Below the pieces are notes generated by a model that worked only from the letters and a program-made list of their open reading frames with translations, was not told where the DNA came from and searched no databases. From Wolbachia endosymbiont of Cimex lectularius (lineage in GTDB: Bacteria > Pseudomonadota > Alphaproteobacteria > Rickettsiales > Anaplasmataceae), in the NCBI RefSeq assembly GCF_000829315.1, contig NZ_AP013028.1, positions 600,001 through 632,000 of the forward strand: a DNA stretch of 32,000 nt, in the 5' to 3' direction. Made by a program: the position numbers and the translations under genes. This document shows positions 9,239-27,984 of this stretch, piece after piece. Numbering within the stretch: the first letter of the stretch is position 1; every line of letters begins with the position of its first letter.

Positions 9239-10588
9239 GTTTAATACCTTTAGAATTGTAATAATAATCTATTGTGTTCGAGACTTCCCTTCTCAGTAGA
9301 TATATTGCAACAGCATTTGGAATCATAAGACACATAAACAAACTGTCGCCTAAATAAGATATAAATTCTATATTTTTTGACATACAACTGATATACACCG
9401 AACCCACTATAAGAACTTGGAACAATATCAGTACTTTTTTGCTACCAAATAAGTACAGCAAAGCAACTTCACAGTAGTAACAATAAGCTATTATCGTGGA
9501 AAATGCAAAGGAAAACATTATCAGCGGGAGAGCTAACTTGCTAAATAAAGGCAAGGCTGTTGAAAATGCCGAGCTAACCAATGTAATATCACCCACGTTA
9601 TCAGTACTATGCATACCAGTGATAATTATTACAATGCCAGTCAAAAATGAGACTAATATTGTGTCTACAAATGGTGCAATCATTGCAACACTTCCAACCT
9701 TAATTGGGTCTTCCTCTTTCACATCTGAATGTGCTATGGCTGCTGTTCCGGTACCTGCTTCGTTAGCAAATACCGATCTTCTAACTCCGGCTATTAATCC
9801 ACTCAGCACCCACCTCCTATGGCTGATTTGTTAAAGATATCTTGAAATGTTATAGATAGAGCATTCAGCAGATTATTTCCGTTTACACAGACTGAATACA
9901 CACACATACCTATATACAACACTATCATAATTGGTGCTAAACCCGTTGAAACGAAAGCAATTCGTTTTATTCCTCCCAGTATTACAATCAAGACAAGCAG
10001 CGATATAATAATAGACGCGTTATATTCAAAGAGGTTGTTTGACAATGCTGCAATTTGATTTGCTTGAAATGGTATGCCACCCAAAATCATCGCAATAAGT
10101 AACATAATTGCATAAGTGAATGCAATAAACTTACCAGTCCTGACAAATCCAATCTTAGCAAGTCCGTACTTCATGTAACAAAAAGCCCCGCCAGTTGAGT
10201 TTTCAGAGCGATAATTGAATGCAAGCACCACTTCAGCAAATTTTATCGACATGCCAAGTATTCCAGTAATTATCATCCAAAAAATTGCACTTGGGCCCCC
10301 TATTGTGATAGCTATAGCAACTCCTGATATTGTCCCAAGACCAACTGTTCCTGAAATTACTGTTGCAAACGCTTGAATATGAGTGATTATACTGTCGTTA
10401 TGATTACATTTTAGGTTGAATAGCGTTTGTATTCCATGCTTGAATAACCTAAAGTTAGTAAATTTGAACTGAACCGTACAAAAAACTCCAGTTGCAATCA
10501 CCCAAATAATTATAAATGGAATGTTAAATATCTTTACGTACAGAAATGAATTTAATAGTTCACTTATTTTTATAACCGTGCTACTCAC
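9228..10588 (-). pseudogene. Sodium:alanine symporter paralog, split by a frameshift at ~9807-9811
   Basis: ORFs 9803-10588 (N part, ends '...AIGGGC*') and 9228-9809 (C part, '(V)LSGLIAGVRRSVFANEAGTGTAAIAHS') are colinear with the intact neighbour ('AVGGGVVGAFVAGIQRAIFASEAGVGSASITHA'). The frames differ by one nucleotide within GGAGGTGGGTGCTGA. Confidence 0.85.
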
Positions 10589-18966: not shown

Positions 18967-20295
18967 ATGACAAACACAGGTGAAACTATTTTTGCTTTAT
19001 CAACCGTATTTGGTAAGTCAGGAGTTGCAGTAATCAGAATTTCAGGTAGTCATGCGCTTAAGGCTTTAAGTCATTTTCATATTACAAAAGACGTCAAACC
19101 TAGGTTTGCTACTTTAGTTGATCTATATGATGATTCAGGTCAATTGATTGACAATGGAATAGCCATTTATTTTCCTGCTCCAAACAGCTTCACTGGTGAA
19201 GATGTCATAGAGTTGCAAGTGCATGGAAGCAAAGCAGTTATAAAGATTATCTTGGAGGAATTATCAAAAGTTTTTGTTATGGCTAAGCCTGGAGAATTCT
19301 CGCTTAGGGCCTTTCTAAATGGCAAGTTTGACTTAACGCAAATAGAAGGAATTGCCGACTTGATTGATGCCGAAACAAAAATGCAAGCTAAACAAGCAAT
19401 CAGGCAGATGTCAGGGGAATTAGAGAGGTTATACAGTGGTTGGAGACAGAGATTGATAGCAATGCAATCTAGAATTGAAGCATATATAGATTTTCCAGAG
19501 GATGTTGTAACAGAAAGAAACGAGCTGGAAAAGGTCAATAACGAAGTGCAAGCTCTTGTACAGTCAATACAAGACCACCTAGATGATAACAGACGTGGTG
19601 AAAGATTGCGTGAAGGTTTACATATTGTGATAACTGGTGAACCAAATGTTGGTAAATCAACGCTATTTAATTTTCTTGCCAAACGTGATATCGCTATTGT
19701 TTCTGAATACGCAGGCACAACAAGGGACGTACTTGAAGCTCATATCGACATCTGCGGATATCCGATCATCCTTTCTGATACTGCTGGAATTCGTGAGAGC
19801 TCAGATCCGGTAGAATCAGAAGGCATAAGTCGAGCGAGAAAAAAGTCTTGTGAAGCTGATTTGAGAATAGAATTATTTCCTTTTAAACAGCGTCACAATA
19901 TCAATTGCAGTGTTACAAATAGTGACACCATTTATGTGCTGAGCAAAGCTGATGACGTCAGCGATAATCATAATATAAAAATTAACAACATAGATTTTTT
20001 ATCTATTTCTATTTTAAAAGGAATAGGCACAGAAAGGCTAATCTCTGTGATTAAAGAAAAAGTAGAGAAAAAATTTGGCTGCGATAGAGACGCTCCTCTG
20101 ATTACTCGGCAAAGATATAGAAATTGTATGCAGAGAGCTATAGAGCATTTACGACGTTTTAATATAGACAATCCGATTGAACTAATATCCGAAGACTTAA
20201 GGCTTGCAGCAATTAAACTTGGTGCGGTAACTGGGGTTATTAGTGTTGAAGAAGTATTGGATGATATATTCAATAACTTCTGTGTAGGCAAGTGA
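18967..20295 (+). CDS. mnmE: tRNA modification GTPase MnmE (TrmE)
   Basis: '[21 protein letters not shown]' N-domain, G-domain '[12 protein letters not shown]' and 'DTAGIRES', and the diagnostic C-terminal 'FCVGK'. Confidence 0.95.
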
Positions 20296-20342
20296 AATTT
20301 TTATAGATTGCTTGAAATCAAATGTTGTGATAAAAAAGAAGT

Positions 20343-20430
20343 GGACGGATGGCCGAGTGGTTTAAGGCACCAGTCTTGAAAACTGACGTACGTGATGAGC
20401 GTACCATGGGTTCGAATCCCATTCCGTCCG
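20343..20430 (+). tRNA. tRNA-Ser (anticodon UGA), long variable arm
   Basis: Acceptor GGACGGA/TCCGTCC plus discriminator G. D-arm 'GCCGAGTGGTTTAAGGC'. Anticodon loop CT-TGA-AA. Long variable arm 'CGTACGTGATGAGCGTACC'. T-arm 'GGGTTCGAATCCC'. Confidence 0.93.
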
Positions 20431-20548
20431 TATACTGTTTAACATAACTCAAGTCCGACTTATTAGCCCATTTTTGTCCAATATGTGTGTGCCTTCTTCT
20501 GGGTAAGGTCAATTCGGTATTTATGGACAACCTCTTCTACCTGAAGCA

Positions 20549-20675: not shown

Positions 20676-22030
20676 GTGAGGTTGAGGATGTCTGAAAGAT
20701 TGTCCTGCTCGGCGGTTAAACGCACCTTTCATGGTATTATGTATCAAACGATATGGCTAATGCTGTTTCCTAAACGTGCAGTGGATAGAGAGTATTCTTT
20801 TCGCCTATTCACAGAGAAAGAATCAGCTAAGGATTTCGATGATATCGTTCTTCGTTATGAACAAGGCGGGAAAATAATACATAGATTCATAAAAACCAAG
20901 CACAAGAAAAATAAAAACAAAAAGATCGGAATAGGTAAATTATTAACGCGGGGAAAGGATGATGCGTTTAGCTTAATAAAATATCTCATTGCTTATTTAA
21001 AAATCAAAAGTAGTGGAAAGTTTGAGGGTGAAATAGAAGATTTTGTCATTGTTACAAATGCTGATTTTGATTCCACGGATTCGACATTGTGTCCAGTACG
21101 AAAGCTGAGAATGATGTCGAACGAAAAGAATGAAGGAAAGGAAATTTCAGTTATAAGGGTAGATATACAAGATGAGTTTTTGGATGTAGGTAATGGTGCA
21201 AGATATAAATTTGATAGTAGTATTATCTCATACCTGCAGGAAAATAAGGATTTCATAAAGCGTGAGGTAGGTAGAGAAGTCAGCGATGAAAAAATAGAAG
21301 ACTTTTTAAATAAATTAGTATTTGCAGTTAATTTACCTAATAGGGCTGAATTGAGTAGAATCATTAAGAATGAGTTGGGCAAGGAATTCAGTAATGTTGA
21401 TGCAAGGTACTTCTATAGTCGCCTTCTAGAAGAAGTGCTGATTTTGATGGAAAAAGAAAAAGAGGACTTTCTATCATACAGGGAAGCAAAAGCCCTACTT
21501 GAAAAAATAAGAGAGGAAATTTTAGAAGAGATTTGGTTTGAAATAATAGAGCCAGTAGTATCTTTTACTGGTAGAAGTAGTGAATTAAAAACTTTACATA
21601 ACGCATTACGAAAGAGCGCAGGCAAACAAGCAGTGATATCACAGGTTGCTACTATTAGTGGTCTTGGAGGAGTGGGAAAAAGTGAGTTAGCTAGGAAATA
21701 TGCTTACAAATATGGAAAGTATTATGGTGGCAATGTTATATGGATAAATGCTGAAAACTTTGAGTATATGAAAAATTCTTTCTTGAGGTTAGCTGAAGAC
21801 AAGAGAGTAGGTATTTCTCCCAAAGATAAGCACGAAAAGGACAAGACGATAGAAGCTATTGTTGAAGAAATATATGCTTTCTTTGCAAGAAGGAGAAGGA
21901 AGAGCCTATTTATTTTTGATAATGCTGAGGGATATTAAAGACATTAAAAAGTTTTTACCTTCATCTTTACATCCTAGACATAAAAAACCTTATGTTCTAG
22001 TTACTTCTCGTGACTGTAAGTGGAATGTAA
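20676..22030 (+). pseudogene. STAND-type NTPase (NB-ARC-like P-loop) with PD-(D/E)xK-nuclease-like N-terminal domain; frameshifted near 21930 and cut by an IS at 22031
   Basis: P-loop 'ISGLGGVGKSELARKYA' and Walker B 'SLFIFDNAE'. After a frame change (ORF 21859-22068) the sequence continues 'DIKKFLPSSLHPRHKKPYVLVTSRDCKWN' (NB-ARC 'hhVTSR' motif). N-terminus: 'FHGIMYQ', 'TEKESAKDFDDIVL', 'RFIKTKH'. ATG at 20688 is an alternative start. Confidence 0.65.
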
Positions 22031-22891
22031 GAACCTGTTTAAAATCTTGGAAATGTGAGGTAAAGTAAGCATAGATTAATAATGAGGTGTCTATGCAGAA
22101 AAGTTATCCAAGTAATATAAGTCAAGAGCAGTTTGAAAAAATCAGGCCAATTTTGGAGAGTAGCAAGCAGAAAACAAAACCAAGAAAACTTGATTTGTAT
22201 GACGTATTTTGTGGGGTGTTGTACGTCTTAAAAAGTGGTTGTCAGTGGAGGATGTTACCAAAGGGTTTTCCAAGATGGGAAAGCGTATATTACTATTTTC
22301 GAGTGTGGAGTAAAAAGAATGGAGAAGAGCCAAGCTTGTTGGAATTAGTCTTAAAAAAAATTAGTTGGAGAGGTCCGTATCAGCAATGGTCGGAAAGAGA
22401 AAACTAGCTTTTGTATAATTGATTCTCAAAGCGTTAAAAACGCAGATACTGCTGAAAAAAAAAGGCTATGATGCAGGTAAAAAGATTTCAGGGATAAAGC
22501 GCCATATTGCAGTTGATACACAAGGTTTGCCACATGCAATTTATGTAACAACGGCAGAAGCAACTGACCGTAGCAGTGCTGTGAAAATGGTCGAAAATGC
22601 TAAAGCAAACCTCTCTGAAGTTAAAAACATACTGGTTGATGCTGGCTACACAGGAGAAAATTTTGCAACACAAATAAAAGCTATCATTGGTGCGACTGTT
22701 GAAGTAATAAAGCGAAGTGAGTTACACACTTTCGTCGTACTGCCAAAAAGATGGGTTGTTGAACGCTCTTTTGCCTGGTTAGAAAAGTGCAGGCGATTGT
22801 GGAAAAATTGCGAGCGGAAGCTCAACACTAGCTTACAGATGATAGTCCTCTCCTTCATTTCTCTCCTGTTACGAAGATTTTAAACAGGTTC
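22031..22891 (+). mobile_element. IS5-family insertion sequence, copy 1 (861 bp), flanked by TAA on both sides
   Basis: Terminal inverted repeats GAACCTGTTTAAAATCTT (22031-22048) and AAGATTTTAAACAGGTTC (22874-22891). TAA at 22028-22030 and 22892-22894. Near-identical to 27125-27984 (inverted) and to the partial copy at 25058-25380. Confidence 0.93.
22087..22883 (+). pseudogene. IS5-family DDE transposase (orfA 22087-22407, orfB 22419-22883); needs two frame corrections in this copy
   Basis: orfA is an HTH-like N-domain ('CGVLYVLKSGCQWRMLP'). orfB carries DDE motifs ('IIDSQSVK' reached only via the +1 frame, 'VDAGYTGENF', 'VVERSFAWLEKCRRLWKNCERK'). A8 run at 22353-22360. The second run is A9 (22455-22463) against A8 in copy 3, which breaks the frame again. 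Confidence 0.85.
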
Positions 22892-23051
22892 TAAGAGAAT
22901 ATTCTTCTACTTCCTCTATCATGCGAAGCTGCGAACATGTTAATTCATATATTGTTAAGGATTATTATTAAATTTTTATTAATATTAGTAATGATTAAAC
23001 TTTTAGTCAAAATGAAAGCAGACTTCTCGCATAACCTAAAAAAAAGTAAAA

Positions 23052-23170
23052 AAAACCCTGGTCAGTATTTATTTCCAGTATTGGCGTTTTTATGCCTTTA
23101 ACGCTGCAATTTAGCTGCTTTTAAACGCAACTAGTCTAAGCTATAATATTTAAGAAATTTACCAGGCAGA
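23052..23170. repeat. Left arm of a ~119-bp near-perfect inverted repeat (partner 23611-23729)
   Basis: 23052-23170 is the reverse complement of 23611-23729 with only a few mismatches, for example '...TTTAAACGCAACTAGTCTAAGCTATAATATTTAAGAAATTTACCAGGCAGAA' against 'TTCTGCCTGGTAAATTTCTTAAATATTATAGCTTAGACTAGTTGCGTTTAAA...'. Confidence 0.85.
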
Positions 23171-23319
23171 AAAAAGAAGGCTATCGAAGGAGTATGATTT
23201 ACTCACAACATTCACTGAGAATTTCATATACTTAGCTATGAGTAGAGTTATGTTAAAGAGGGAATATGCTTGAATTTGCTAGCTTCCGGACAACCTCTAT
23301 ATATTCAGAAGCCACGGGA

Positions 23320-23775
23320 ATTCAATAGAAACAAAAAAACTGCTTGACAACTTTCGCTATTCCTTTTATCAATAGTATTGAAGCTATTTGTTTAACTTCC
23401 CAATCTGTGCAGGTTAAAATGACAAGAAAACTTGTATTTGGCGTACTATTGTTTAATTTTTCGCACTATGTGCACTGCATGTCTAAAACTTCGGGTTTTT
23501 ACCCATACAAGCTGAAACGCGCTTATAAGTCGTTTAAGACATCACCCAACGCCGGATTTTAAAATAGAGAGTGGAATAACTAGCTACCTCGGGGTTTTAT
23601 TGTCCTTTTCTTCTGCCTGGTAAATTTCTTAAATATTATAGCTTAGACTAGTTGCGTTTAAAAGCAGCTAAATTGCAGCGTTTAAGACATAAAAACGCCA
23701 ATACTAAAAATAAATACTGACCAGGGTTTCTTTTGCTTTTTTTTTCGCTTGGTAAATTTCTTAATATTTATAGCT
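23320..23775 (+). repeat. Promoter-bearing intergenic repeat, copy C (plus orientation)
   Basis: TTGACA (23344-23349), 17 nt, TATCAA (23367-23372). Aligns with copy B and with the rc of copy A. Its two tail modules end in TGGTAAATTTCTTAA at ~23618-23632 and ~23750-23764. Confidence 0.8.
23611..23729. repeat. Right arm of the ~119-bp inverted repeat (partner 23052-23170); it is the second tail module of repeat copy C
   Basis: See the left arm. The arms bracket 23171-23610, which contains the copy C promoter. Confidence 0.85.
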
Positions 23776-24158
23776 AGTTGTAATTCATAAATTGGGTAGA
23801 AGGTGTAATTCTGTCCAGCCTTTATCACGCAACCTCACCAAGAACGTTTTTAGCATAAGATTAGCTACTTTCCATGATCACCAAATCAGTTTGCTTGTGA
23901 ACAAGCAAATTTTCCTGGATTGTATATTAAATCAAAGCTGTAAGTCTATAATGAGCAAGGAGTGATACTGTTGACTGGATTGATTGCTTATACCAATTCC
24001 CATTACATAGGACAATAACGAGGAAAAGGCCCATACTGAAACAAGTAGAATAGCGTGTGGCATATCTGCTCCCTGTGTGATGGGAATTGGTATACCGAAG
24101 CCAAGAATATGTGTTTCCTTATATGCACAGAAGTAAATATTGTGAACACTATATTGTG

Positions 24159-24226
24159 GAACCGTGTGCGGGAAATTCGCATGCACGGTTCTGATAGGGA
24201 GACTGTAGCGATAAGACCTAATCGAT
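24159..24226 (+). mobile_element. Group II intron 3' remnant: domain V and domain VI with bulged branch-point A
   Basis: 24159-24191 'GAACCGTGTGCGGGAAATTCGCATGCACGGTTC' folds like the 34-nt domain V consensus (GAGCCGUAUGCGAUGAAAGUCGCACGUACGGUUC). It has a 9-bp lower stem, a 2-nt bulge (AT) on the 3' strand, an upper stem and a GAAA-type loop. 24193-24223 'GATAGG...CCT-A-ATC' forms a domain VI-like helix with a bulged A at 24220, 7 nt before a possible ...GAT 3' end at 24226. Confidence 0.55.
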
Positions 24227-24280
24227 GGTTTCAAAATTGCAATTCTCTATCAACCCAAGTAGTTTTTTTTGATATCTTAT

Positions 24281-25057
24281 CTATACCAAAGTGTTCTTCT
24301 TATAGATATTATACCAACAATCCACTATTTTTTCTACGTCTCGTGGTTTAGTTTTTGGACCTATACTGATTCTAATCGAACACTCTGCTTGCTCTTTTGT
24401 TGCCCCCATTGCAAGCAAAACATGGGAAGGTTCAACTTTTCCAGAAGAACATGCAGAGCCATTGCTAACTGCAATGTTATTTAAGTCAAAATGCATGAGC
24501 TGCACGCCATTCCTTACTTTCGGCATATAAATGAGACTTGTATTTGGTAACCTTTTGGAGTTTTTACCGAAGATTTTGATACCGCTGGCAAAGTTTAACA
24601 GCTCACACTCCAATTGATCGCGTAGCTTCTTTATTTCATCCATTTTTGATAGAAGATCTGGGATATCTCGCAATGCAGCAGAAAGACCTGCAATTGCAAC
24701 AATATTTTCCGTACCACCTCGTAATCCTTTCTCTTGCCCGCCACCTATTATGATAGGTTCTATTACAAGCTTTTTGTCGTATATTAAAACTCCACTACCC
24801 GCTATACCGCCGAATTTATGAGCGGACAAAGTGAGTAAATCCACCCCTAAATCTTCCATATTAACTTCAATTTTTCCAACGCTTTGAGCAGCATCGGTGT
24901 GACAGATTGCTCCAAATTTATGTGCTATTTCAGCTACTTCCTTAACAGGCTGAATAACCCCAGTTTCGTTATTAGCCATCATCACTGAAACTATTACTCT
25001 ATCCCTCTCAAGTTTGCTCAGAATCTTTTCTAGCTCTAAAAGATCAACAACACCTTC
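24281..25057 (-). pseudogene. iscS: Cysteine desulfurase (IscS/NifS family), C-terminal ~258 codons only, fused in frame to IS orfA
   Basis: 'VSVMMANNETGVIQPV', 'HTDAAQSVGKI', PLP-lysine motif 'LSAHKFGG' and active-site 'SNGSACSSG'. The N-terminal ~125 aa of the family are missing. The ORF continues upstream into IS sequence (track ORF 24281-25324). Confidence 0.85.
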
Positions 25058-25380
25058 TAAGACTAATTCCAACAAGCTTGGCTCTTCTCCATTCTTTTTA
25101 CTCCACACTCGAAAATAGTAATATACGCTTTCCCATCTTGGAAAACCCTTTGGTAACATCCTCCACTGACAACCACTTTTTAAGACGTACAACACCCCAC
25201 AAAATACGTCATACAAATCAAGTTTTCTTGGTTTTGTTTTCTGCTTGCTACTCTCCAAAATTGGCCTGATTTTTTCAAACTGCTCTTGACTTATATTACT
25301 TGGATAACTTTTCTGCATAGACACCTCATTATTAATCTATGCTTACTTTACCTCACATTTCCAAGATTTTAAACAGGTTC
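25058..25380 (-). mobile_element. IS5-family insertion sequence, copy 2, truncated (left ~323 bp only: IRL plus orfA up to the A-run)
   Basis: Matches copies 1 and 3 from the terminal IR (…AAGATTTTAAACAGGTTC ending at 25380, TAA at 25381-25383) to the codons 'LELVL'. Identity stops exactly where the A8 run begins in the full copies (25057|25058). Confidence 0.9.
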
Positions 25381-25381
25381 T

Positions 25382-25684
25382 AAGAATAAAAATGGTGAAA
25401 CTTCGCTGCACTACTCTGTCTTGTTTGGTAGCCACAGTAGCTACAATATCGTAGGATACCTCATTCGAGAAAATGCTAATGTTAACGCTAAGGATAAGAA
25501 TGGCAACACTCCGTTTCATCTCGCTGCTATAAATGGAAAGATTGATGTAGTTAAGGTACTATTAAAGTACAACGCAGATGTCAACGCAAAAAATAATGAA
25601 GGGAGAACAGCATTGTGTTATGCTACTGAACATAACTACCGGAAGCTTGTGGAGTTGCTTTTAGCTCATGCTTGTGTCTGCTGA
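25382..25684 (+). pseudogene. Ankyrin-repeat protein, 3' fragment (about three ANK repeats), 5'-truncated at the IS end
   Basis: The frame is open from the IS boundary: 'NKNGETSLHYSV...', 'DKNGNTPFHLAAINGKIDVVKVLLKYNADVNAKNNEGRTALCYATEHNYRKLVELLLAH'. These are canonical ANK 'G.TPLH.A...G....V..LL..GA.VN' units. The only start-like codon is TTG at 25421. Confidence 0.75.
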
Positions 25685-26507: not shown

Positions 26508-27124
26508 ATGAGTTTATATAAAAATTTAATTACCAGTGAATCAGTTGCAGCTGGTCATCCAGACAAAGTAGCGGATCAAATTTCAGATGCAATACTTGAC
26601 AAGTACCTTTTTACTGACCCTTCCTCGCGAACTGCAATAGAAACTTTAGTTACTAAAGATAACGTTATTATAGCGGGAGAAGTGTTTGGACCTAACATCG
26701 CAAATAGCAGAATTGAAAATATTGTACACAGTACAATAAAAGATATTGGTTACGAATGCGATGGTTTCCACTGGAGAAGAGTGAAAGTAAATATATTGTT
26801 GCATGAACAATCAAATGACATTGCAATAGGGGTGGACCAAGGTGCTGGAGATCAGGGCATTATGTATGGTTATGCAACGACAGAGACAGAAAGTCTCATG
26901 CCGGCGCCAATTTTTTATGCGCACTTGATTTTAAAAAATATTATGAGTGTAGCTAAAGAAGCAAAACTTGGTCCAGATGCAAAATCGCAAATTACCTTGG
27001 TGTATGAGAATAATCTGCCAGTACGTGCTGAAAGTATTATCGTTTCAATACAGCACCCTGAAGATCTGGATCAATTGAAAGTAAAAGAAATAATTTACCC
27101 TTGCATAGTTTCATTTTTACCTAA
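26508..27124 (+). pseudogene. metK: S-adenosylmethionine synthetase, N-terminal ~205 codons, truncated by IS copy 3
   Basis: 'ITSESVAAGHPDKVADQISDAILD' and 'GAGDQGIMYGYA' are canonical MetK. The homologous reading ends at '...FLPKNL', where the IS terminal repeat starts (27125). The expected 'INPTG.F.IGGP.GD.GLTGRKIIVDTYGG' half is absent on the other side of the IS. Confidence 0.88.
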
Positions 27125-27984
27125 GAACCTGTTTAAAATCTTCGTAACAGGAGAGAAATGAAGGAGAGGACTATCATCTGTAAGCTAGTGTTGAGCTTCC
27201 GCTCGCAATTTTTCCACAATCGCCTGCACTTTTCTAACCAGGCAAAAGAGCGTTCAACAACCCATCTTTTTGGCAATACGACGAAAGTGTGTAACTCACT
27301 TCGCTTTATTACTTCAACAGTCGCACCAATGATAGCTTTTATTTGTGTTGCAAAATTTTCTCCTGTGTAGCCAGCATCAACCAGTATGTTTTTAACTTCA
27401 GAGAGGTTTGCTTTAGCATTTTCGACCATTTTCACAGCACTGCTACGGTCAGTTGCTTCTGCCGTTGTTACATAAATTGCATGTGGCAAACCTTGTGTAT
27501 CAACTGCAATATGGCGCTTTATCCCTGAAATCTTTTTACCTGCATCATAGCCTTTTTTTTCAGCAGTATCTGCGTTTTTAACGCTTTGAGAATCAATTAT
27601 ACAAAAGCTAGTTTTCTCTTTCCGACCATTGCTGATACGGACCTCTCCAACTAATTTTTTTTAAGACTAATTCCAACAAGCTTGGCTCTTCTCCATTCTT
27701 TTTACTCCACACTCGAAAATAGTAATATACGCTTTCCCATCTTGGAAAACCCTTTGGTAACATCCTCCACTGACAACCACTTTTTAAGACGTACAACACC
27801 CCACAAAATACGTCATACAAATCAAGTTTTCTTGGTTTTGTTTTCTGCTTGCTACTCTCCAAAATTGGCCTGATTTTTTCAAACTGCTCTTGACTTATAT
27901 TACTTGGATAACTTTTCTGCATAGACACCTCATTATTAATCTATGCTTACTTTACCTCACATTTCCAAGATTTTAAACAGGTTC
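27125..27984 (-). mobile_element. IS5-family insertion sequence, copy 3 (860 bp), flanked by TAA on both sides
   Basis: GAACCTGTTTAAAATCTT at 27125-27142 and AAGATTTTAAACAGGTTC at 27967-27984. TAA at 27122-27124 and 27985-27987. One A shorter than copy 1, plus a C/T difference (track antisense ORFs read 'LFGNTT' against 'LFGSTT'). Confidence 0.93.
27133..27928 (-). CDS. IS5-family DDE transposase, orfA (27608-27928) plus orfB frame (open from the A8 run to 27133); one frameshift or slippage event gives a ~279-aa protein
   Basis: Reading orfA through 'LELVLKK' and dropping one A of the A8 run (rc of 27655-27662) gives 'LVGEVRISNGRKEKTSFCIIDSQSVKNADTAEKKGYDAGKKISGIKRHIAVDTQGLPHAIYVTTAE...VDAGY...VVERSFAWLEKCRRLWKNCERK' with no further stop. 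Confidence 0.8.

Follow-up and report, generated by a model that had tools for sequence, protein, structure and literature searches.

The window analysed here, 32,000 nt of the forward strand of the core chromosome of the Wolbachia endosymbiont of Cimex lectularius (NZ_AP013028.1, 600,001–632,000), contains a broken gene, now a pseudogene in pieces, that probably encoded a single-chain NLR-like STAND protein, a reading whose mechanistic part is drawn by analogy. The ancestral protein would have been of ~1000–1200 aa, with a Cap4/DUF4297-type nuclease domain (~280 aa), an NB-ARC NTPase composed of nucleotide-binding domain (NBD), helical domain 1 (HD1), winged-helix domain (WHD) and a further helical domain, and a C-terminal ankyrin (ANK) sensor. 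Its gene is dead here: it shows the replacement of Q69 by lysine (Q69K) at the putative active site, a +1 frameshift after the Walker B motif and an IS5-type insertion sequence (IS) after the RNBS-B motif, and the removal of ~440 codons and a truncated second IS copy at the last three ankyrin repeats are further damage.

The 5′ part of the pseudogene is an open reading frame (ORF) at 20676–21938 (+), of 420 aa from a GTG or 416 aa from the ATG at 20688. The latter, from which residues are numbered throughout, is the NCBI-style start, as in the near-identical database protein P0001, and the MRLRM start is common to the window ORF and the homologue P0026. The ORF, for which 94 database homologues were collected, contains a Cap4-like domain and the first half of the nucleotide-binding domain of the NB-ARC, and ends at a stop codon made by the frameshift.

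A nuclease-type head joined to an NB-ARC NTPase

Residues 1–281 (20688–21530, +) are assigned to a Cap4/DUF4297-like PD-(D/E)xK nuclease-type domain on the basis of an AlphaFold (AF2) model, Foldseek and residue conservation. The model, built from 14 homologues (pLDDT 77, pTM 0.77), opens with a long helix; a beta hairpin bears D51/D52 and the K69-x-K71 strand, and there are other strands and, at the C-terminal end, a helical bundle. When it was compared with the PDB by Foldseek, the high-confidence matches were to Cap4-type defence nucleases only (E 4.6e-5 to 1e-3, probability 1.0). The top match was HerA-DUF4297 (9c1m_G, E 4.6e-5), and further matches were LmuA (9ux7_C, 9nxx, 9hr5), HamA (8zue), EcCap4 (7yib) and AbCap4 (6wan, 6wam and 6vm6, E 1.6e-4 and weaker). 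An earlier note on this DNA, made from its letters, had proposed a nuclease-like N-terminal effector domain of ~80 aa followed by a helical linker of ~230 aa. The fold bears out the nuclease-like head of that proposal, but neither its length nor the linker: because the matches extend over ~280 aligned columns (TMq 0.40–0.50), with beta strands throughout, the nuclease-type domain is predicted to span all 281 aa.

Sequence comparison agrees on the Cap4-type superfamily through independent weak matches. The window domain scores 18.0 bits against Pfam Cap4_nuclease (PF14130; E 0.0036), under the gathering score of 26.2 bits; a precomputed PF14130 match is on record for one homologue in the database, P0020; and the PADLOC models SAVED_PDDEXK and LmuA/DUF4297 match the domain weakly (~1e-3). 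On the model, therefore, structure places the domain in the Cap4/DUF4297 nuclease superfamily, and it has its particular signature, which escapes Pfam. That signature comprises H15-G16-x-x-Y19-Q20 (20730–20747 in the window), E43 (codon 20814–16), D51-D52 (20838–43), Q69-x-K71-H72 (present here as K69-T-K71-H72, 20892–20903) and N124.

The signature is strongly kept: E43, D51 and D52 in 164/165 family representatives, K71 and H72 in 167/167. Position 69, the putative catalytic (E/Q)xK position, is glutamine in 161/167, and column conservation identifies the AAA codon at 20892–20894 (+) as a Q69K replacement, lysine at this position being confined to the lineage of the window. The triad of DUF4297, D41/E59/K61, has been validated experimentally (10.1101/2024.10.24.620088), and its spacing is that of D52…Q69-x-K71. 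D52/Q69/K71 is accordingly a putative active site, assigned from spacing and position on the strand rather than from a superposition of coordinates, and with K69 in place of glutamine the putative triad of the window copy is altered. Cleavage of DNA by the domain is predicted, by analogy with its structural neighbours.

The N-terminal portion of the NB-ARC NTPase follows at 21531–21935 (+), recognised by its motifs (an FTGR motif among them), by NCBIfam and by a sequence profile. The P-loop GLGGVGKSELA lies at 21660–21692 (GLGGVGKS at 21660–21683) and the Walker B motif LFIFDNAE at 21906–21929 (LFIFDN at 21906–21923), both invariant in the NTPase alignment. The RNBS-B or sensor-1-like motif VLVTSR, at 21994–22011, is readable in the +1 frame only; in the orthologue profile it aligns with VITTRD of Roq1. 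The window fragment by itself scores 17.7 bits against Pfam NB-ARC (PF00931, gathering score 23.5), compared with 25–46 bits for intact homologues, and aligns at 4e-19 to the NCBIfam FxSxx-COOH TPR protein, within its NTPase region. Searched as a single sequence the NTPase matched nothing in the PDB, and a profile was needed: one of 20 sequences found Roq1 and AfsR at 1e-7, then NRC4, Sr35 and NRC2, with P-loop, Walker B, RNBS-B and GLPL all aligned. When the orthologous module was modelled with AlphaFold (pLDDT 86.6), the model matched Apaf-1 (E 4.6e-12) and CED-4 (TM 0.71–0.73), and also Roq1, NRC3, ZAR1 and Dark. The window holds no GLPL motif, HD1 or winged-helix domain, the gene being broken at 22030, while orthologues carry GLPL (as FPLAL) and the NBD-HD1-WHD fold. 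The NTPase is thus a STAND of the NB-ARC/AP-ATPase clade; Pfam matches in homologues, profile and model agree with the earlier note in this respect.

Frameshift, insertion elements and the missing middle

Alignment to orthologue DNA places a net +1-nt frameshift, GGATAT[T]AAAGAC, at 21927–21950 (+). It creates the stop codon at 21936–38, and the homologous reading frame is picked up one base later, as IKDIKKFLPSSLHPRHKKPYVLVTSRDCKWNV at 21937–22030 (+). There the gene is interrupted by copy A of an IS5-family element, 861 bp at 22031–22891 (+), with 16-bp inverted repeats GAACCTGTTTAAAATC, a TAA on either side (22028–30 and 22892–94), and a transposase in two ORFs (22087–22407 and 22419–22883). 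Assignment to the IS5 family follows from the DDE_Tnp_1 domain, the DUF4096 N-terminus, the inverted repeats and the short A/T target duplication; all three copies of the element in the window have the 16-bp repeats and TAA flanks. The motifs quoted in the earlier note, its frameshift near 21925–21935 and its IS5 insertion at the TAA at 22028–22030 are all present in the sequence as described. The two lesions also recur in an independent contig (L024) of a metagenome-assembled genome (MAG; GCA_051710405.1), which is identical to the window over 1599 nt save for one single-nucleotide polymorphism and shares with it both the extra base and the IS junction. An assembly artefact is thus excluded for either lesion, and the double inactivation proposed from the window holds.

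The same note had taken the C-terminal sensor repeats to be gone. This proved incorrect, for a search of the window with intact orthologues (tblastn) recovered the 3′ end of the same gene at 25382–25684 (+): 100 aa that take in the final three ankyrin repeats and run to the stop codon. The best match of this remnant is to aa 900–1003 of the 1007-aa orthologue P0095 (61.5% identity), and other best matches are to aa 1105–1197 of P0098 (1206 aa) and aa 456–548 of the C-terminal half of the wFol copy (557 aa). That it belongs to an unrelated ankyrin gene was considered and rejected, since it matches the very C-terminal ends of orthologues best, at 58–62% identity, compared with 34–40% for most other ankyrin stretches (35–47% overall).

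Codons ~460–900 had no match in the window on either strand. In place of these ~440 codons lies 2.4 kb of foreign debris, among it the end of a group II intron and a piece of iscS. Filler of ~1.4 kb without homology to the family (22895–24280) separates the IS copies and has at its end a group II intron domain V/VI at 24157–24260 (+; Rfam 46.8 bits against a gathering score of 40). The 1.3 kb upstream of this domain has no long ORF, so that it is probably what is left of a degenerate intron. The intron domain ends 20 bp from the iscS stop codon. Next comes a 3′ fragment of a cysteine desulfurase gene of the iscS/nifS type (24281–25057, −; Pfam Aminotran_5 positions 126–370), and then copy B of the IS, the first 323 nt alone, identical to copy A and inverted (25058–25380, −; TAA at 25381–83), which abuts the ankyrin remnant. 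In a chimeric ORF at 24281–25324 (−), OrfA of the IS transposase contributes its first 89 aa, joined in frame to the C-terminal two thirds of the cysteine desulfurase. Simple recombination between IS copies was rejected as the cause of the deletion: copies A and B are mutually inverted and B is truncated inside, which does not fit.

Two other accounts of the locus bear on these lesions. Were the frameshift an error of sequencing or assembly, the IS would be the sole interruption and the true in-frame sequence would be GGATATAAAGAC; the shift does lie in an A/T-rich stretch, GGATATTAAAGACATTAAAAAG, of the kind prone to indel errors. Given that an independent assembly with a polymorphism elsewhere carries the same extra base, this is extremely improbable, and ~440 codons would be gone even without the frameshift. 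The second account, by which the 420-aa ORF would encode a short protein that still works, as a stand-alone nuclease with part of an ATPase, draws on the length of the ORF, its near-identity in two assemblies and the occurrence of 400–660-aa versions in many Wolbachia genomes. It too is highly improbable: the ORF stops inside the nucleotide-binding domain just past Walker B while homology continues in another frame, the near-invariant Q69 has been replaced, and truncation points vary from genome to genome and coincide with IS insertions, which points to independent decay. Taken alone, this locus is a commonplace pseudogene of a genome rich in IS elements.

Orthologues, spread and repeated decay

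The suggestion that intact orthologues might exist elsewhere, possibly as an uncharacterised system, was upheld: they were found, with C-terminal repeats (ANK, or tetratricopeptide repeats (TPR) in paralogues), and went unrecognised as a system by PADLOC. Intact orthologues are 1007–1427 aa long and join the Cap4-like domain to NB-ARC and to ANK or TPR. P0095 (WP_265044649.1; 1007 aa, from Wolbachia group A; N-domain followed by NB-ARC, DUF7779 and ANK), P0098 (1206 aa, 13 ANK repeats), P0097 (XCA33130.1; 1117 aa, Wolbachia, TPR), P0099 (1057 aa, TPR and ANK) and P0102 (1427 aa) all hold effector, STAND NTPase and repeat sensor, in that order, in one protein. The same NB-ARC module is also found with TIR or DnaJ heads (P0089; P0058/P0065/P0067), and the Cap4-like head is also joined to a NACHT NTPase (P0103). 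Such exchange of heads is effector swapping, typical of immune STANDs.

A profile of the N-domain, searched against 1.84 billion cluster representatives, recovered 1343 clusters (50% identity) at E<=1e-3 and 284 at E<=1e-30. The family is therefore large, and it is barely described: NCBI names its members 'NB-ARC domain-containing' or 'ankyrin repeat domain-containing' protein, a literature search turned up neither a paper that connects Wolbachia with Cap4 or DUF4297 nor any mention of the Cap4-like head, and two broad surveys of STAND proteins leave Wolbachia, Rickettsiales and ankyrin sensors unmentioned. Named bacterial members come from Wolbachia, Candidatus Mesenet, Midichloriaceae, MAGs of Rickettsiales and Candidatus Rickettsiella viridis, and no free-living bacterium is among the named family matches. 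A scan of contigs returned one Wolbachia locus and unrelated actinobacterial STANDs, being swamped by the generic P-loop pattern. The family is abundant in endosymbionts, and in insect genomes as well, which runs counter to the earlier expectation that such architectures should be rare in obligate intracellular bacteria.

Members on insect chromosomes occur in Brassicogethes (on a 103-Mb contig), Onthophagus, Condylostylus, Malaya and Planococcus citri (isoforms X1 and X2), and more in Halyomorpha, Phymastichus, Apis cerana, Pseudomyrmex and Eufriesea. In Pseudomyrmex gracilis (JWHX01000097.1, L025 10001–12007) the gene is spliced and lies between a sirtuin gene and a C2H2 zinc-finger gene; in Apis cerana (KZ288186.1, L026 10001–11800) it is likewise spliced, between a TEP/A2M gene and laminin. 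Insect proteins of 1500–3500 aa (Halyomorpha, Brassicogethes, Onthophagus, Planococcus, Malaya and others) hold HG..YQ/E/DD/QxKH, and the full signature, with N, is intact or nearly so in the insect and bacterial members checked, single substitutions being present in a few insect copies.

Where their neighbours could be read, the Wolbachia copies are chromosomal. P0095 stands directly after gatB in two group-A genomes, and gatB and cysS are the neighbours of the orthologous site. Copies at the gatB site are split by IS elements in wFol (CP015510.2, L001 8001–12475, IS5-type) and in OZ195519.1 (L003 8001–12577, IS110); these splits are independent, and in both cases the downstream half consists of ankyrin repeats whose reading frame is still open. 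At least a dozen more homologues on megabase contigs are shortened to 255–656 aa. Together, the gatB-site orthologues and the many truncated copies indicate that the family is old and chromosomal in Wolbachia and has been inactivated again and again.

No family match was found among the 50,697 phage records of INPHARED, and PLSDB plasmids gave P-loop matches only. The sole provirus match, in IMG/VR (L027 7998–8966, IMGVR_UViG_637000339_000002), is a truncated N-domain copy of 322 aa, with secA next to it, at one margin of a provirus predicted to span 102 kb. Phage cargo was rejected as an explanation of this copy in view of its position at the contig edge and its neighbours, folD, transaldolase and secA; the provirus boundary is probably over-extended.

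In the window, the remnant is preceded by 23S rRNA, nrdA, ruvX, plsY, recA, pyrC, mnmE (18967–20295, Pfam MnmE) and, directly upstream, tRNA-Ser(UGA) (20342–20431, +; ARAGORN, Rfam), and is followed by tRNA-Ile, metK, thyX and murA. In all, this IS5-type element occurs three times in the window, where metK and a symporter gene are also split. The third IS copy, full-length at 27125–27984 (−) with TAA on both flanks, interrupts metK, of which the ORF at 26508–27161 (+) retains the N-terminal and central S-AdoMet synthetase domains alone. Two tandem sodium:alanine symporter genes occupy 7772–9238, 9228–9809 and 9803–10588 (all −), the second in two overlapping ORFs and probably another frameshifted pseudogene. 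The 5′ 771 positions of 23S rRNA lie at 1–747 (−), running off the window start; the Wolbachia small RNA WsnRNA46 is at 6284–6458 (+; 65.5 bits, barely over the gathering score); and a 533-aa ORF at 4609–6210 (+) has no Pfam match at E<=1e-4.

Proposed mechanism, rival explanations and meaning of the family

The known systems closest in working logic are Avs3 and Avs7 (SeAvs3, PDB 8DGC; SeAvs7), which also carry a Cap4-type head, a STAND NTPase and a C-terminal helical-repeat sensor on one polypeptide. In these Cap4-STAND-TPR proteins, which experiments have established as sensors of phage, an auto-inhibited monomer binds a phage protein through its repeat sensor, whereupon ADP is exchanged for ATP, tetramers form and the Cap4 domains become an active DNase (PMC12803255). 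From the architecture, folds and conserved residues held in common, we infer the same switch logic for the ancestral Wolbachia protein, in which nuclease activity, activation triggered by oligomerisation and the nature of the ligand are all proposed by analogy. At rest, the repeats would keep the protein ADP-bound and auto-inhibited; binding of a protein ligand would open the NB-ARC, and ATP-dependent oligomerisation would bring the nuclease domains together, leading to DNA cleavage and a suicide or abortive response. The same NB-ARC switch operates in Apaf-1, CED-4 and plant NLRs. The ligand would most plausibly be a protein of phage WO or of another invader, although a host protein is possible; phage WO proteins are the most economical guess.

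Differences from the known systems are equally plain. Relative to Avs3/Avs7, the NTPase is of the NB-ARC/AP-ATPase clade, its nearest solved relatives being Apaf-1, CED-4, plant NLRs and AfsR rather than Avs; the sensor is ankyrin, or TPR in paralogues; and the hosts are obligate intracellular symbionts and insects. The Cap4-type nucleases that best match aa 1–281, namely Cap4 of CBASS, LmuA of Lamassu, the DUF4297 domain of HerA-DUF4297 and HamA of Hachiman, have glutamate where the family has glutamine at the middle position of the triad; here, moreover, the domain shows its own signature, HG..YQ/E/DD/QxKH/N, and is fused to NB-ARC rather than to a SAVED domain or associated with an SMC or HerA partner. 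With the NB-ARC proteins Apaf-1, CED-4, Dark, plant NLRs, AfsR and the FxSxx-COOH TPR protein the family shares P-loop, Walker B, RNBS-B (hhhTSR) and GLPL (FPLAL) motifs and the NBD-HD1-WHD fold (TM up to 0.73), but its head is a nuclease instead of a CARD, TIR, CC or SARP DNA-binding domain, and its repeats are ANK/TPR instead of WD40 or LRR.

Several results weigh against an immune nuclease sensor. Run on the intact orthologues, PADLOC-DB v2.0.0, a model set without the newer Avs families (~90), gave no Avs model match; what it returned were ANK/TPR repeat models and weak DUF4297/SAVED_PDDEXK matches. SeAvs3 was missing from the best 50 Foldseek matches of the N-domain, and an N-domain sequence profile found no nuclease among all PDB sequences (a GatB match of this profile, E 0.08, was read as chance). 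Among 14 N-domains, the window copy alone matched PF14130 at E<1 (1/14), below threshold, and sequence evidence by itself is for that reason insufficient for a nuclease claim. At the locus there is neither defence island nor prophage, its neighbours being housekeeping genes. Most Wolbachia copies are truncated, which could mean that the family is largely dispensable there, and ankyrin sensors, together with family members in insect nuclear genes, fit a role in host interaction equally well. Of the Avs/antiphage-type label given in the earlier note, the analogy of architecture consequently stands and the membership does not: although the working logic appears Avs3/Avs7-like, the protein is not assigned to the Avs family, because no Avs model matches, the NTPase belongs to another clade and the surroundings are housekeeping genes with no linkage to phage or plasmid.

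An antiphage role is accordingly put forward as unproven, and a host-directed role is a live rival. By that account, which we consider rather unlikely, the ancestral protein was not an antiphage sensor; it was an effector of the kind attributed to the phage WO eukaryotic association module, whose ANK/TPR repeats would bind arthropod proteins, whose NB-ARC would mimic or hijack host cell-death machinery, and whose nuclease would harm host DNA as do the nucleases of cytoplasmic incompatibility. The organism group and the combination of NB-ARC with ANK/TPR are indeed those of the module proteins (Bordenstein & Bordenstein 2016), and the literature reads the NB-ARC, ANK and TPR domains of Wolbachia in this way (PMC5062602, PMC6133264, PMC10438800). 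Restriction of the family to arthropod-associated intracellular bacteria and arthropod genomes, the ankyrin sensor, the missing defence-island context and Avs match, and weak Foldseek matches of the N-domain to the nuclease domains of CidB/CinB (probability 0.1–0.38) all favour it. Yet the copies examined, unlike the module proteins, are chromosomal, beside gatB, mnmE or secA, and both the window copy and the intact orthologues (beside gatB or mnmE) lie outside any prophage or eukaryotic association module; deposited phage genomes yielded no match to the family; the best structural neighbours of the head are all bacterial immune nucleases; and TIR, the alternative head on the same NB-ARC module, is a classic abortive-infection effector. 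A NLR-like conflict protein with a nuclease head thus remains the reading we prefer.

A wider proposal is offered tentatively, as possible rather than probable: that there exists a large and as yet undescribed clade of Cap4-nuclease NB-ARC repeat proteins common to arthropod endosymbionts (Wolbachia, Mesenet, Midichloriaceae, Rickettsiella) and to nuclear, intron-containing genes in many insects (among them beetles, bugs, flies, mosquitoes, ants, bees, mealybugs), that insects may have a bacterial-type nuclease-NLR repertoire exchanged with their symbionts, and that the symbiont copies may be a genuine immune or conflict system, repeatedly lost. To our knowledge, insects are usually said to be without NLR-type receptors.

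By itself the locus shows no more than how IS elements erode a Wolbachia genome; its importance lies in the family that it brings to light. NB-ARC/ankyrin proteins of Wolbachia, read since 2016 as eukaryote-like manipulators of the host, bear a predicted nuclease head of the type found in CBASS, Lamassu, Hachiman and Avs3/Avs7, and as the default hypothesis for them a bacterial NLR-like suicide nuclease would take the place of a mimic of host cell-death factors. Intact genes, for example WP_265044649.1 beside gatB, are available to set against phage WO proteins, and the relatives on insect chromosomes, with their conserved putative active-site signature, bear on how NLR-like immunity arose in animals and on gene exchange between symbiont and host.

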